64,000 nt of DNA from a phage, in the sequence record PZ583742.1; one strand, 5' to 3'. The position numbers were made by a program, and so were the translations under genes. The notes under the pieces are model-generated. The model saw only the letters and a program-made list of their open reading frames with translations, did no database searches and was not told where the DNA came from. Shown here piece by piece: positions 6,847 through 53,961 of the stretch. The stretch's first letter is position 1. The number at the start of each line of letters is the position of its first letter.

Positions 6847-7341
6847 ATGAATATATTCGAAATGTTACGTATAGATGAAGGTTGTAAGTTGGATTTGTAT
6901 AAAGATACTGAAGGCTATTGGACCATTGGTATCGGGCAACTGATAACTAAGAACCCATCGAAAGATGTTGCTCGCGCCGAGCTCGACAAGCTTATGGGTC
7001 GCGTCTGTAATGGTCGCATAACCCAGCACGAAGCTGAAACATTGTTTAATCGTTCGGTCGAAAAAGCTAAAGCCGGAATCTTGAGGCATCCTGTCTTAAA
7101 ACCTGTTTATGATGTACTGGATGAAGTTCGTCGTTGTGCGCTCATTAATATGGTATTCCAGATGGGTGTTGCCGGGGTAGCTGGTTTTCCTAAGGGTATG
7201 CGACTGCTGAAGGCTAAATCATGGGAAGCTGCTGCTAAGGAACTGGCTGACTCAAGATGGTATAAAGTCCAGACTCCGAATAGGGCAAAACGAGTTATCG
7301 AAACTTTCCGTACTGGAACTTTTGACGCATACAAAAGGTAA
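6847..7341 (+). CDS. e: T4-type lysozyme (endolysin)
   Basis: [51 protein letters not shown] matches T4 lysozyme along its length. Confidence 0.95.
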
Positions 7342-13363: not shown

Positions 13364-13434
13364 CAGTTACTAACTAGTATTCCGCTATGTTAAGGCTGCA
13401 AAGCGTAATCATGACCAACAATAAGGAGTCCTTT

Positions 13435-13728
13435 ATGGACCTTATTCGAGGACTTTCTCTAAGTCTATTACTAATGGGCTGTTTAGGCCCAAATATGTCC
13501 TCTGCTACAGATGGTAAATTTACCCAGTATGCAGATAGTGCGATGCAAATCTATTCGCAATTCAAAGAACCCAGCGTCGAGCAGTCCGAACAATTTTGGG
13601 CTTTTATTAAAACTGAATGGAACAATAAGAGTCAATGTGTAAATGAAATCACATGTCAAATTGATGGCCGTGCTGCTGCAGTCGAATACGCTAAATTAAT
13701 GAAGGTAAAATTGGAAGATGAAATTTGA
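13435..13728 (+). CDS. rI: lysis-inhibition regulator RI (antiholin)
   Basis: 97 aa; C-terminal half SVEQSEQFWAFIKTEW..C..AVEYAKLMKVKLEDE resembles T4 RI; exact late promoter TATAAATA at 13356-13363; RBS AAGGAG. Confidence 0.7.
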   Translation: MDLIRGLSLSLLLMGCLGPNMSSATDGKFTQYADSAMQIYSQFKEPSVEQSEQFWAFIKTEWNNKSQCVNEITCQIDGRAAAVEYAKLMKVKLEDEI

Positions 13729-17605: not shown

Positions 17606-18352
17606 TTATGAAGTCACTGTTTGTTCGGCTACTAACAATGCGGAGGTTATTGTAAAGTTGCCGCCATTTGGCATAACAGTTATAGCTGTACCATTGGTTG
17701 CCATTGCCTCATCTTTATCAATGCTAAAGAACGTTGTAAAAGACAAAATATCTGTAGCATTTTCCGGACGATTCTGTATATAAGTGTTTCCGTTGGTTCC
17801 AACGAAATTTAATGTTATACTTCGAGCTTGCGAGGCTCCTGCAAAATTACCAATAAGGTTGAGTTTAAACATTAGGCTTCTGTCTTGGTTATATGGCCAC
17901 AACTTATCATCAGTGGTTCTAAAAAACGGAGATAGAGTCCCTGCAGTCGGTGGAATCCCCTTTAAAACACTAATTATGTTTGAAGTCGTACCATTAGTTA
18001 ATAGAACGTTTATACCACTCCAAAACACCTCGGATTTTTCCCTCTTTCCTGCTGTATCAGTTAAAAAATCATCAACAGTTCCTGTATTTCCCAAGTCAAG
18101 CCATATCTGATAAGAAGATTTTCCATCCCCACCCGGTTCTCCTTTTGGTCCGGGTACACCCGGTTCTCCTTTGGGACCAGGCGGACCCGGTATCTGAGTT
18201 TCCGAGCTGGACATAGTTTGGAAAAAACGCTCTTTGCTATCTGTAGGGGTATTCGGCAACACCATAGTAGAACCAAACAAATACCAATTATCAGCCAAGG
18301 CAGCCTGGACTTTTTCATTGAGTTCATCAACAGTTCTTCCGGATAAAATCAT
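17606..18352 (-). CDS. collagen-like repeat protein with tail-fibre-type motif and beta-rich C-terminal domain
   Basis: Minus-strand 248 aa ORF with RBS AAAGGAG 8 nt before ATG; seven G-X-Y triplets (GPPGPKGEPGVPGPKGEPGGDG) followed by KSSYQIWLDLGNTGTVDDFL, then N/T/S/G-rich C-terminal domain. Confidence 0.7.
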   Translation of the reverse strand: MILSGRTVDELNEKVQAALADNWYLFGSTMVLPNTPTDSKERFFQTMSSSETQIPGPPGPKGEPGVPGPKGEPGGDGKSSYQIWLDLGNTGTVDDFLTDTAGKREKSEVFWSGINVLLTNGTTSNIISVLKGIPPTAGTLSPFFRTTDDKLWPYNQDRSLMFKLNLIGNFAGASQARSITLNFVGTNGNTYIQNRPENATDILSFTTFFSIDKDEAMATNGTAITVMPNGGNFTITSALLVAEQTVTS

Positions 18353-50427: not shown

Positions 50428-50595
50428 ATGAAAACATTCAAAGATTTTATCAACGAAAATATGGTTGCCGGTGATGCGGGTGGAAACCCAACTAATATCG
50501 CAACAGGTACCACTTCCGGGGCAGTTGTCAATAAAGGCCCTGAACAAATCCCATCAAAAAAGCGTAAGAACAAAGACGATAAACCTACAGTATAA
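50428..50595 (+). CDS. small internal-protein-like protein with capsid-targeting sequence (55 aa)
   Basis: N-terminus MKTFKDFINE (CTS-like, I-N-E protease site); exact late promoter TATAAATA at 50404-50411; RBS AAAGGGGG; below ORF-track size cutoff. Confidence 0.55.
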   Translation: MKTFKDFINENMVAGDAGGNPTNIATGTTSGAVVNKGPEQIPSKKRKNKDDKPTV

Positions 50596-50627: not shown

Positions 50628-51656
50628 ATGTCATATATTGATAAAGAATTTGCAGTCAGAGCTTTATCGTATCAACCACGTTATAGAGAAGTCACCGGGA
50701 GCACATTTAAAGCAAACTGTCGTTGCAAGGTTTGTGGGGACTCCCAGAAAGATTCACACAAGGCTCGATTCTGGGCGTATACTAATCCGACTGATGGCGC
50801 GGTTTACGTGAAATGTTTTAACTGTGACTACTCCACGCATATAAGCAAATACATAAAAGAGTTTGAGCCGGATTTACACCGGGAATATATGGTTGAGAAG
50901 TATAAGGAGAATGCATTTGGGCGACAACGCACTGAAGTTGCAGAAGCTCCGAAAGAACCAGAAAAAACTCCGGTTATTGAGCAGCTTGCTTTTTGTGAAA
51001 GACTCGATACTTTACCAGAAGCACATCCGATAATTAAGTATGTAAAAAGTCGGTGTATTCCGAGCAATGTTTGGAACCGGTTATGGTTTACAAACAAATG
51101 GCCTGCATTAGTTAACTCCGTTAATCCTGGGACGTATAAGAATGAAACGAATGAACCACGCTTGGTTATTCCTATCTTCAACGGCAAAAAAGAAATCGAA
51201 TCTTTCCAAGGACGAGCTCTTCGCAAAGATGCACCACAAAAATATATCACAATCAAAGCTCACCCAGAAGCTTCCAAAGTCTATGGCGTAGACAAGATTG
51301 ATGAGCGTAAACGCGTATGGGTAATGGAAGGTCCAATTGATAGTTTGTTTATCCCTAACAGCATTGCGATAACCGGTGGAACATTAGCATTGGAAGCTGT
51401 TCCTTACCCAGAAACCAGAGTATGGGTGATGGATTCAGAAGCAAGACATCCTGATACGATTAAACGTATGAAGAAATTAGTCGATGCAGGAGAAGCTGTT
51501 ATGTTCTGGGACAACGCACCGTGGCATACGAAAGATATAAATGAAATGATTAAATCGGAAGGAGCAACGCCTGAGCAAATTGAAGCCTATATGAATGATA
51601 ATATTGCACAAGGTTTAATGGCAAAACTTCGATTATCCAAATATGCAAAAATATGA
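50628..51656 (+). CDS. 61: DNA primase gp61
   Basis: N-terminal zinc ribbon CRCKVCGDS..x..CFNCDYS; TOPRIM-like VWVMEGPIDSLF; size and neighbourhood as T4 gp61. Confidence 0.9.
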   Translation: MSYIDKEFAVRALSYQPRYREVTGSTFKANCRCKVCGDSQKDSHKARFWAYTNPTDGAVYVKCFNCDYSTHISKYIKEFEPDLHREYMVEKYKENAFGRQRTEVAEAPKEPEKTPVIEQLAFCERLDTLPEAHPIIKYVKSRCIPSNVWNRLWFTNKWPALVNSVNPGTYKNETNEPRLVIPIFNGKKEIESFQGRALRKDAPQKYITIKAHPEASKVYGVDKIDERKRVWVMEGPIDSLFIPNSIAITGGTLALEAVPYPETRVWVMDSEARHPDTIKRMKKLVDAGEAVMFWDNAPWHTKDINEMIKSEGATPEQIEAYMNDNIAQGLMAKLRLSKYAKI

Positions 51657-52420
51657 ATTATCTAAAATTATATAATAAATTAATAGACAAAGGCCTCGCA
51701 AGGGGCCTAAACAAAAAGAATATCCCATTTTATACGGAGTCCCATCATATACTACCAAGGTGTTTGGGTGGACCTGACACCGAAGATAATTTGGTATTGT
51801 TATCAGCAAGAGAACATTTTATTGCACATTTGTTACTTTTTAAAATTTATCGACTTTCTAAATTAATGTTTGCTATACACCGGATGTGCGGTGACAAATT
51901 TGATAGCGCAAAATATGAATGGATGCGAAAAGAACATAGTAAAGCCGTTAGTGAACATATGTCAAACTTATGGAGTCAATCCGAGTTTAAAGACAAAATG
52001 TTAATTGCTTTACACAAGCGACATAACGACCACCCTGTGTCTGATAAAACCAAAAGTAAAATAGCTAACTCATTAAAATTGTATTATCAAAATAATCCAG
52101 TTACTGATGAACAACGGCAAAAGAATCGCGATGCACAAATGAGAAGATTTAAAGAAAATCCGCAAACCGAAGAAACGAAAAAGTTGCGGCGAGAAGCATG
52201 CCGAAAGGCAACTGGAACACCGGTTTGTAGATGCGATGAATTTGGTAATATACTTGAAAAGTATAATTCGGGAGCTGAGGCAAAGGAATTATTACAATTG
52301 GCGGGCAATACTCAAAATATATACACAGCTTGTAAAAGAAATAAAAAGACAGGCCGAATGTATAGGTCAAACGGCCATTTTTGGAAGTATCAAGACGAGG
52401 AAGGGATTCCGGTAAAGTAA
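51653..52420 (+). CDS. HNH homing endonuclease (Mob-like)
   Basis: HNH motif ESHHILPRCLGGPDTEDNLVLLSAREHFIAH; start overlaps gene 61 stop (ATGA); basic repeat-containing C-terminal half. Confidence 0.75.
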   Translation: MNYLKLYNKLIDKGLARGLNKKNIPFYTESHHILPRCLGGPDTEDNLVLLSAREHFIAHLLLFKIYRLSKLMFAIHRMCGDKFDSAKYEWMRKEHSKAVSEHMSNLWSQSEFKDKMLIALHKRHNDHPVSDKTKSKIANSLKLYYQNNPVTDEQRQKNRDAQMRRFKENPQTEETKKLRREACRKATGTPVCRCDEFGNILEKYNSGAEAKELLQLAGNTQNIYTACKRNKKTGRMYRSNGHFWKYQDEEGIPVK

Positions 52421-52596
52421 CCGATGATGGAATGGATATGTTCCATTGTGACCTGGGGTAAGTGTACCCCTTGTGTTGCAGCGATAGGCACAACCAGTAA
52501 GTTCCACAGGAAAACATCAAGAGCTAAAAAGCCCATGATGAGCTTCTTGTCTTTCTTACTGGTTAATTTCCAAATCTGATAGAATAATGTTCCCAT
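52390..52596 (-). CDS. small membrane protein, minus strand (paralogue of 52605..52802)
   Basis: Minus-strand ORF with RBS AGGTGG 7 nt before ATG; TM segment similar to neighbour (FLWNLLVVPIAATQGVHLP vs LLWNFIVAPVAMAHGVILP). Confidence 0.5.
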   Translation of the reverse strand: MGTLFYQIWKLTSKKDKKLIMGFLALDVFLWNLLVVPIAATQGVHLPQVTMEHIHSIIGYFTGIPSSS

Positions 52597-52604
52597 AGTT
52601 CCAC

Positions 52605-52802
52605 CTATATAAGGCCGATTAATGCCAGTGAAACATCTACAACTGATTCGAGCGCGACGACTGGTAATATAACACCATGTGCCATTGCAACTGGAGCAAC
52701 AATGAAGTTCCAGAGTAGAACTAAACAGAGTACCGAAAGGACCAGAATCGTTCGCTTACGACTGCCTTTGATGGCTTGAATTAGACTAGATAGTTTTAGC
52801 AT
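52605..52802 (-). CDS. small membrane protein, minus strand
   Basis: Minus-strand ORF with RBS AAGAAAGGGGG before ATG; late-promoter-like CATAAATA upstream on minus strand. Confidence 0.5.
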   Translation of the reverse strand: MLKLSSLIQAIKGSRKRTILVLSVLCLVLLWNFIVAPVAMAHGVILPVVALESVVDVSLALIGLI

Positions 52803-52886
52803 ACATCCCCCTTTCTTGTATTTATGCTTTAAACCAATACGATATAATTAACATACAAACAACATGAATTGATAAGGAAAAATATA

Positions 52887-53405
52887 ATGGCTCATTTTAA
52901 TGAATGTTCTCAACTGATTGCTGGTGTTGATAAAGCTCAGGGCGCTTATGATAATGCAATTTTTGAAGGCACTGACCCACTGCAAGTTATGCTTGATATG
53001 CAGAAATCATTGCAGGTTCGTCTGGCTAAAGAAAAACCAGAATATAACGAACATCCTGATAACCTGGCGACTGCTGGTGAAGTTGTTACCTGGCTCCGCA
53101 ACCAGAAAGATTATATTGATGATGAATTCCGTGAACTGATTACTGCATTAGGTGGCATGTCCAATGGCGAGAAAGCTGCCTCGGCCGTATGGAAACCATG
53201 GAAAGCACAACATGGCGAAATGCAGCAAACCCTGATTAATGATTTATCTCCTGAAGACCAGCTCGAAATTAAATTTGAGATGATTGATATCCTGCACTTT
53301 GTCCTGAACATGTTCCACGGTCTTGGACTGACTGCAGAAGAAATCTTTAAATTGTATTATCTGAAAAATGCCGAAAACTTTGCTCGTCAAGACCGAGGTT
53401 ATTAA
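52887..53405 (+). CDS. 56: dCTPase/dUTPase gp56
   Basis: MAHFNEC..L..GVDKAQ; DPLQVMLDMQ; IDDEFRELI; SPEDQLEIKFE..D..HFVLNMF.GLG..AEEIFKLYYLKN.ENFARQDRGY is near-identical to T4 gp56. Confidence 0.93.
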   Translation: MAHFNECSQLIAGVDKAQGAYDNAIFEGTDPLQVMLDMQKSLQVRLAKEKPEYNEHPDNLATAGEVVTWLRNQKDYIDDEFRELITALGGMSNGEKAASAVWKPWKAQHGEMQQTLINDLSPEDQLEIKFEMIDILHFVLNMFHGLGLTAEEIFKLYYLKNAENFARQDRGY

Positions 53406-53686
53406 TGGCTCGATTAAATAAACGTCAGCTTAAGAAAGCTCGCAAGAAATATATTAACGATATAATTGAAAATGTTAATACCGAAATCTTCGTAGAACTC
53501 TTATCTAATCAACTAAAACATTTATCTAAACATGAAATTGATACGAATACTGAAAATGCTAAAAATGTAATTGAAACTCATAATGCTTTTGCTAATGCAA
53601 CAGCAGAATGGATGGCGAATCCTACTGCTGAAAATCTAGCTAAAATGACTGAAGCCAATAAAGCAGTTCAAGCCATCAAATTGTAA
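53405..53686 (+). CDS. hypothetical protein
   Basis: ORF abutting gene 56 stop. Confidence 0.4.
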   Translation: MARLNKRQLKKARKKYINDIIENVNTEIFVELLSNQLKHLSKHEIDTNTENAKNVIETHNAFANATAEWMANPTAENLAKMTEANKAVQAIKL

Positions 53687-53727: not shown

Positions 53728-53961
53728 ATGGGTGGTTTCGTTAATATCAAAACCTTCACGCATCCAGCTGGTGAAGGTAAAGAAGTTAAAGGTGTTGAAG
53801 TATCTGTTCCGTTTGAAATCTATTCGAACGAGCACCGTATTGCTAATGCACACTATCAGACTTTTCCTTCCGAAAAGGCCGCTTATGTCACCGTAGCGTC
53901 TAGTGCAGCTGATTGGCGAACTAAGAACGCGGCGATGTTTACGCCTACCCCAGTAGTTTAA
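53728..53961 (+). CDS. soc: small outer capsid protein Soc
   Basis: VNIKTF; SGAHYQTFPSEKAAY-type core (ours ANAHYQTFPSEKAAYVTV) matches T4 Soc; exact late promoter TATAAATA at 53689-53696; RBS AAGGAG. Confidence 0.85.
   Translation: MGGFVNIKTFTHPAGEGKEVKGVEVSVPFEIYSNEHRIANAHYQTFPSEKAAYVTVASSAADWRTKNAAMFTPTPVV

Follow-up and report, generated by a model that had tools for sequence, protein, structure and literature searches.

Why would a T4-like phage carry, side by side, two small genes for related membrane proteins that run against the strand of all their neighbours, and what could such a pair do? The question is raised by a 64,000-nucleotide stretch of phage DNA (sequence record PZ583742.1), which we call the window. 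From 50.6 to 54 kb the window holds the primase–gp56–soc segment (gene 61 -> gene 56 -> soc) of a T4-like phage, and its nearest records are Gapriverviruses, T4-like coliphages such as vB_EcoM_RZ, DK-13, P8, UPEC01, VR20/25/26 and P479. All sizeable open reading frames (ORFs) of this segment are on the plus strand except two, here called copy 1 and copy 2. A sequence-only reading had singled out these ORFs (65 and 68 residues), quoting a transmembrane (TM) core and a good ribosome-binding site for each, and had likened the pair to holin/antiholin-like, exclusion or toxin-like membrane peptides. We find both ORFs and both Shine-Dalgarno (SD) sequences at the positions below, and the TM cores had been quoted correctly. 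What was seen in the sequence is thereby confirmed, and is more solid than the letters alone could show; its interpretation is supported in part. Both proteins prove to be further members, in tandem, of an already catalogued family of hypothetical proteins, PHROG 2024, and we consider it probable that they are inner-membrane proteins expressed from a small late operon. The features on which this explanation is built are as follows.

52605..52802, minus strand: copy 1, 65 residues, "type A" form of PHROG 2024, with a basic N-terminus, a predicted TM segment at about residues 18-41 and a predicted short C-terminal helix
52390..52596, minus strand: copy 2, 68 residues, "type B" form of PHROG 2024, its final residues changed relative to the 66-residue form
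52819..52826, minus strand: late-promoter-like element CATAAATA, 16 nucleotides 5' of the copy 1 ATG
52807..52813, minus strand: copy 1 SD, AAGGGGG, 4 nucleotides 5' of the ATG (AAGGAGG in most relatives)
52601..52606, minus strand: copy 2 SD, AGGTGG, overlapping the TAG stop of copy 1

Membership of the family is clear for both copies. Each has a full-length match to PHROG 2024, which is labelled "unknown function" (copy 1, E 2.5e-26, residues 1-65 of 65; copy 2, E 6.7e-28, residues 1-64 of 65). The paralogy proposed earlier also holds up, as the copies are 43% identical over 42 residues (pairwise BLASTP, E 3e-10) and are thus homologous, beyond both being hydrophobic. Copy 1 is 100% identical to a protein of phage P479, and residues 1-66 of copy 2 are 100% identical to those of UPEC01, TH41 and TH44. 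Both ORFs already stand in public records as hypothetical proteins, and the P479, VR25, MN01 and UPEC01 records annotate the tandem.

Substitution patterns indicate that both ORFs are real coding genes. Pooled Nei-Gojobori pairwise estimates of the ratio of nonsynonymous to synonymous substitution rates (dN/dS) were 0.33 for copy 1 (17 distinct Gaprivervirus alleles), 0.07 for intact copy 2, 0.08 for single-copy type B genes, 0.16 for Tequatrovirus type A and 0.05 for Mosigvirus type A. Variation is enriched at third codon positions, substitutions in copy 1 are mainly exchanges among V, I and L, and residues 1-17 of copy 1 are invariant within the Gaprivervirus genus. The sequence-only reading would have been undone by a lack of coding conservation in related phages; with dN/dS between 0.05 and 0.33 in those relatives, the ORFs are conserved as coding sequence. 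The reading of the two as chance ORFs is rejected.

The family is real but narrow, and confined to phages of the T-even type. By tblastn, type A (the form of copy 1) is present in 693 phage records, including T4, T2 and RB69 (RB69ORF029w), and type B (the form of copy 2) in 116. Type B is the sole copy in Dhakaviruses (JS98, IME08, Bp7), Klebsiella phage Marfa and others. An exhaustive profile (hidden Markov model) search of 1.84 billion representative proteins matched 13 clusters, among them one spurious repeat protein (P0039) and one fragment (P0042), and a second search returned 86 proteins, all from T4-like phages of Enterobacteriaceae and all named "hypothetical" or misnamed; it is from these small numbers that we take the family to be narrow. 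Pfam, NCBIfam and PADLOC gave no family match when scanned with both copies, the homologue in T4 and 31 members of the family, and the sole trace of a holin in the Pfam and NCBIfam scans was GTA_holin_3TM (E 0.08, 2 of the 31 members). A profile search of the PDB gave chance TM matches alone (E above 0.1), and a Foldseek search of BFVD with the AlphaFold2 model gave family members only, one of them labelled 'Holin', plus noise.

Names in GenBank and UniProt are unreliable for this family. Copy 2 is a 'DNA packaging ATPase' in UPEC01, P8 and SAKp28, and copy 1 is a 'holin family protein' in EAWsc9 and 'Holin' in OE5505, neither of which is backed by profile search. Misnamed entries are located at 1499-1699 of locus L007, 2291-2392 of L014 and 2607-2804 of L002 (EAWsc9). 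In the literature, we found no text for the names ORF030w, ORF029w or VR7ORF033w.

When would these genes be expressed? The late-promoter-like motif that had been pointed out upstream on the minus strand is present at 52826-52819(-), and it is more than a chance match, its core being rarer in the window than shuffled sequence would give. Its sequence, CATAAATA, agrees with the T4 consensus TATAAATA at 7 of 8 positions, the mismatch being a C at -13. The core ATAAATA is strongly depleted across the 64 kb, with 6 sites observed against 23.4 +/- 5.4 expected from dinucleotide shuffles, and all 6 are 16-30 nucleotides upstream of an ORF start. Five are on the plus strand (6820, 13357, 25064, 50405 and 53690) and precede homologues of e, rI, gene 49 (endonuclease VII), a 61.1-like ORF and soc. 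The sixth (52819-52825), the single minus-strand site of the window, precedes copy 1. In the early region, a perfect TATAAATA precedes the 61.1-like ORF of 55 residues (50428-50595), which suggests late expression of that 'early-region' gene as well.

Comparison among lineages points in the same direction. ATAAATA is invariant at the same upstream position in all lineages, while its flanks diverge or are replaced. The promoter takes the form CATAAATA in Gaprivervirus, GATAAATA in T4 and T2, AATAAATA, a common variant, in RB69, JS98 and some Tequatroviruses, and the perfect TATAAATA in Bp7, Marfa and two IMG/VR contigs. Among T4 late promoters, -13 is the most tolerant position, with A for T at 9 of 50 T4 sites (PMC2988020), and T at -13 is poorly conserved in T4 relatives (PMC1524935). 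In T4, early and middle transcripts have one polarity, and only late transcripts come from either strand (PMC2988020). A scan for sigma-70 promoters and terminators around both ORFs found nothing above background. From the motif and its conservation we infer late transcription of copy 1 and copy 2 from a gp55-type promoter.

The spacing of the two genes suggests how the second would be expressed. The gap between the cistrons is 8 nucleotides and copy 2 has no separate promoter, whereas single-copy type B genes have their own promoter and an AGGAGG. The tandem arrangement leaves copy 2 no space for a promoter and shows no motif for one, so that its transcription must depend on that of copy 1. 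In the mechanism that we propose, the two ORFs would constitute a small late operon. Copy 1 would be driven by CATAAATA, a late promoter of the gp55 type, and copy 2, following after 8 nucleotides, would share the transcript of copy 1. Since the SD of copy 2 overlaps the stop of copy 1, translation of the two is probably coupled.

The locus itself is conserved well beyond the Gapriverviruses. In every lineage examined, the family gene runs opposite to the early genes, flanked by gp61 on one side and by gp56 (in T4, by dam) on the other, and its stop codon shares 4 nucleotides (TTAA) with that of the convergent gene. This arrangement is kept at ~30% identity in a Logan contig and in Salmonella phage AKM_NP4. 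In T4 the gap between dam and 61 (309 bp) is without an annotated feature in RefSeq NC_000866. We find that it encodes an intact 66-residue family member, at 17738..17938(+), with AAGGAGG and GATAAATA upstream and a stop that overlaps the gene 61 stop by 4 nucleotides. T2, RB69 and many other records annotate the orthologue of this T4 gene as hypothetical. Nothing about the dam-61 gap gene was found in the literature on T4 antisense and late transcripts, small proteins or Ribo-seq. The promoter and 5' untranslated region of T4 (type A; L004 ~2205-2238) and JS98 (type B; L010 ~1467-1500) are nearly identical, ATAAATAttaatttaa(c)aggaggata, while their family proteins are ~30-40% identical, so that the expression signals are better conserved than the protein. 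This fits allelic divergence at one locus.

What kind of proteins would these genes encode? Both copies and the distant members share a common layout, in which ~17-20 N-terminal residues with 4-6 lysines or arginines precede a strongly hydrophobic segment at ~18-41, and the C-terminal ~25 residues have no or at most one lysine or arginine and a negative or neutral net charge. The basic cluster has 5 such residues on the N-terminal side of the TM segment, with 0 on the C-terminal side. In agreement with the single TM segment read from the sequence earlier, both copies are predicted to be single-pass membrane proteins, and by the positive-inside rule the basic N-terminus implies an N-in/C-out orientation. 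We therefore predict a bitopic inner-membrane protein with its N-terminus in the cytoplasm. For RB69ORF029w, a TM segment at 21-41 without a signal peptide has been predicted (Nolan et al. 2006). AlphaFold2 with the family alignment models copy 1 as a helix at 3-41, a loop at 42-50 and a helix at 51-62 (predicted local distance difference test, pLDDT, 70.9), and copy 2 in the same pattern with a break at 12-13 (pLDDT 68.6).

Invariant or near-invariant positions of the family are W31, N32, P37, A39, G43, L46, P47, E52 and G63, which give a conserved core motif, WN..P.A...G..LP....E. These residues are spread over the juxtamembrane loop and the outer half of the TM segment, whose inner half is no more than generically hydrophobic. 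A conserved polar Asn within a TM helix, together with Pro and Gly, is expected of a specific helix-packing interface. Given where the conserved residues are, the protein most likely acts by specific helix-helix packing, with itself or with another membrane protein present in the late infected cell. The products would then be inner-membrane proteins of ~65 residues, with a basic amphipathic N-terminus in the cytoplasm, one TM segment, and a loop and helix on the periplasmic side, and the conserved outer-leaflet face of the TM segment would act on another membrane protein through helix packing.

A natural record of gene loss bears on whether the two copies work as a pair. Across 20 distinct Gapriverviruses, in which we aligned the sequence that follows copy 1, copy 1 itself is intact in 20/20, and copy 2 is intact in 8/20 (this window, P479, UPEC01, TH44, MN01, TH15, VR25 and VR26) and inactivated in 12/20; beyond the 8, copy 2 of TH41 also seems intact by tblastn. 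In VR20, RZ, DK-13, CJ20 and TH22, codon 2 has changed from GGA to TGA, a nonsense mutation followed by a later deletion of 2, 26 or 86 nucleotides depending on the sub-lineage, and the copy 2 lesion of EAWsc9 is similar to those of this group. A 97-nucleotide deletion in P8, SP18, phage 212, P896 and TH54 takes the SD, the start codon and 29 codons. It runs exactly between two copies of the 8-bp direct repeat GTGGAACT (aligned to window 52500-52604), one in the SD region of copy 2 and the other in its W-N-L codons, which points to slippage or microhomology-mediated deletion. VR7 copy 2 has a 1-nucleotide insertion. From these lesions, copy 2 has undergone at least three independent inactivations, in progressive decay. 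Where it is intact it is nevertheless under strong constraint (dN/dS 0.07).

The loss of copy 2 has left no signature of redundancy in copy 1, whose constraint is equal with or without an intact copy 2 (dN/dS 0.30 vs 0.33). Since copy 2 is lost in 12/20 Gapriverviruses and most related genera have one copy only, the two genes are not an obligate two-component unit. Types A and B, which take up one and the same place in different genera, appear interchangeable. Most simply read, they are alternative alleles of one function for which one copy is enough, so that the second copy brings at most a conditional benefit. In Gapriverviruses, which carry both types, type B can be dispensed with.

As had been noted, the pair is placed between an HNH gene and the dCTPase gene, and all neighbouring genes are on the plus strand. 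The surrounding features of the window are listed here.

51653..52420, plus strand: HNH homing endonuclease gene (phrog_655, E 6e-45), between gene 61 and copy 2
52390..52420, no strand assigned: convergent overlap of 31 nucleotides between the 3' ends of copy 2 and the HNH gene
52887..53405, plus strand: gp56 dCTPase gene, divergent from copy 1 with 84 intergenic nucleotides, its ATG at 52887 implied by the annotations of relatives
50628-51656, plus strand: primase, gene 61
53728-53961, plus strand: soc

Between gp56 and soc, residues 1-45 of a 93-residue ORF (53405-53686, plus strand) match phrog_5782 ('virion structural protein'). The VR25 record describes its orthologue as 'similar to T4 Soc', and in SP18 two soc genes are annotated there; the ORF may be a partial soc-related duplicate.

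The HNH gene separates gene 61 from copy 2 in this window and in RZ, DK-13 and P8, and its start overlaps the primase stop (ATGA). In genomes without it, the stops of copy 2 and gene 61 overlap by 4 nucleotides. A small indel at the junction has extended copy 2 from 66 to 68 residues (…GIPSSS), and the same indel lengthens the HNH protein, which reads antisense through the end of copy 2. The state of copy 2 differs among the HNH-bearing genomes, being intact here, carrying the nonsense mutation and 26-nucleotide deletion in RZ and DK-13, and carrying the 97-nucleotide deletion in P8. These different states imply that the HNH element has spread across, or recombined among, backgrounds. Among the sampled genomes, only this window has the HNH gene together with an intact copy 2. 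Dhakavirus Bp7 (L012) has a homing endonuclease at the same junction, and together with the HNH-bearing genomes this makes the junction look like a recurrent homing site.

Several observations weigh against a late operon of inner-membrane proteins, or limit how far it can be taken. The C at -13 is unusual and differs from the common late-promoter variant, Nolan et al. (2006) predict no late promoter upstream of RB69ORF029w, and an S16-like member has only ATTAAATA upstream. For the protein, AlphaFold confidence is moderate (pLDDT about 70), and the C-terminal segment of type A is hydrophobic enough for a second TM segment, so that type A may form a hairpin; the C-terminal part of type B is clearly polar. 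The dN/dS values, being pooled and pairwise, come from non-independent comparisons of short related sequences, and all groups agree nonetheless. Copy 2 of the window may already be on its way to loss, and its C-terminus has been altered by the HNH insertion. Finally, only membrane location and late timing tie the family to lysis or the envelope. The role itself is put forward tentatively, at well below even confidence: that the family acts as a non-essential modulator of late envelope or lysis physiology, and is not itself the holin.

How do other explanations compare? The one favoured by the sequence-only reading, a holin/antiholin-like pair in which one peptide makes or triggers membrane lesions and its paralogue antagonises it, is in our view quite unlikely. 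The proteins are small membrane proteins with a probable late timing, their size is similar to that of class II holins and pinholins, and two database records label members 'holin', although these are annotators' labels for which no match was reproduced. However, Pfam and NCBIfam hold no holin profile that matches, neither copy matches the RI-type antiholin (PHROG 1246), and the C-terminal flank lacks the charged tail of a holin, having 0 lysines or arginines and a net negative charge, with the basic cluster N-terminal instead. T4-type phages already possess the T/RI/RIII lysis system, and a normal RI homologue is encoded separately at 13387-13728. The endolysin homologue e, at 6847-7341, is ~46 kb distant, which is weak evidence because lysis genes are scattered in T4-type phages. 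The single copy of most genera, with the loss of copy 2 in 12/20 Gapriverviruses and copy 1 constraint unchanged, is unlike an obligate effector-antagonist pair. The main rival is instead a binder or inhibitor of a membrane component of the host or of a superinfecting phage, serving late superinfection exclusion or protection from a membrane-acting defence. A bitopic protein with its conserved face at the periplasmic side of the membrane would suit such a role, as would a family that is confined to phages of Enterobacteriaceae and that, like many accessory genes for host interaction, is non-essential and differs in copy number. On the other side, the T4 exclusion genes imm and sp are early, and neither PADLOC nor any anti-defence family gives a match; we regard this reading as unlikely, if less so than a holin pair. 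As a membrane-associated helper, the protein might serve late morphogenesis, for instance those steps of head or tail assembly that take place at the inner membrane. Late promoter and membrane location would fit, and in Gapriverviruses the family adjoins soc, a late capsid gene. The gene is outside any structural gene cluster, though, and too readily duplicated and lost, and to our knowledge it has never been reported among T4 morphogenesis genes, which leaves this role decidedly improbable.

Two further explanations would make the proteins incidental or tie them to their neighbour. The selected product might be a late antisense RNA into gene 61 (and, here, the HNH gene) that silences early messages. 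In its favour, the ORF is convergent with gene 61 or the HNH gene and overlaps it, the window shows no convincing terminator after copy 2, and T4 transcribes both strands at some sites at different times (PMC2988020). We judge it very improbable, since the amino acids are under strong purifying selection with the residue motif kept at ~30% identity, and one lineage has a strong hairpin terminator straight after the ORF. As sole function, antisense RNA is rejected because selection acts on the protein sequence; an antisense effect could exist in addition to a protein function. The terminator just mentioned is found in a distant member (74-kb Logan contig, L015 4205-4240), where the hairpin CTCTAGAGC-TTCG-GCTCTAGAG TTTTTT directly 3' of the ORF is strong and placed inside the end of the convergent gene; copy 2 of the window is followed by nothing comparable. 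Type I toxin-like or addiction peptides linked to the neighbouring homing endonuclease, suggested by small hydrophobic peptides beside a mobile HNH gene, are the least credible reading, with next to no chance in our estimate. Hundreds of genomes that lack the HNH gene have the family at this locus, which makes the HNH gene a newcomer; the basic region is N-terminal, and no antisense small RNA partner is evident, though no search for small RNA candidates was made. An HNH-linked toxin is rejected, the distribution of the family being independent of the HNH gene.

Of these explanations, the late operon of PHROG 2024 inner-membrane proteins is the one that we favour, and what it would mean extends beyond the window. 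We raise as a possibility, and a rather doubtful one, that PHROG 2024 is an unrecognised, near-universal late inner-membrane factor of T-even phages, outside the T/RI/RIII/spanin and Imm/Sp systems. If so, its WN..P.A...G..LP motif could bind a specific membrane protein, of the host or of the phage, and in this way tune lysis timing or protect the envelope, for example. The most useful result is that T4, a heavily studied phage whose envelope and lysis control are regarded as well mapped, carries a conserved, selected and probably late membrane-protein gene that is missing from its reference annotation. The locus also illustrates the stacking, then decay, of paralogous alleles in phage genomes, and the Gaprivervirus A+B tandem with its repeated loss of B would, if our reading is true, be a natural record of redundancy between two alleles. 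The practical value is chiefly in annotation and as a lead, and the discovery is modest; because the family is small, deletable and naturally variable in copy number, its role is directly testable.

Among known systems, the closest are the members of the family itself. PHROG 2024, RB69ORF029w, RB32ORF030w and VR7ORF033w share the locus, strand, size and predicted single TM segment of the two copies; the RB69ORF029w-like proteins are mostly single-copy, whereas here A and B subtypes (~26-43% identical) stand in tandem in what would be one operon. The T4 holin T and antiholin RI are, as proposed for the copies, late (RI early and late) inner-membrane proteins, N-in/C-out or signal-anchored, and the analogy is functional only: there is no sequence or profile similarity, and T and RI have sizeable periplasmic domains, while the copies have ~25 residues outside the membrane. 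Class II holins and pinholins such as phage 21 S68 are alike in length (~65-70 residues), and type A resembles them in its second hydrophobic C-terminal segment, but the copies lack a profile match, the charged cytoplasmic C-terminal tail, the dual-start motif and adjacency to an endolysin. T4 Imm and Sp are small T-even envelope proteins whose genes lie a few kb off, within the same region of early genes; unlike the copies they are early and on the other strand, and they have no sequence similarity to them. AcrZ and MgrB are bacterial small bitopic regulators that bind larger membrane proteins. They have no homology to the copies, and the analogy is in form, with a single TM segment, ~50-70 residues, and a conserved face that suggests binding to a larger membrane protein.

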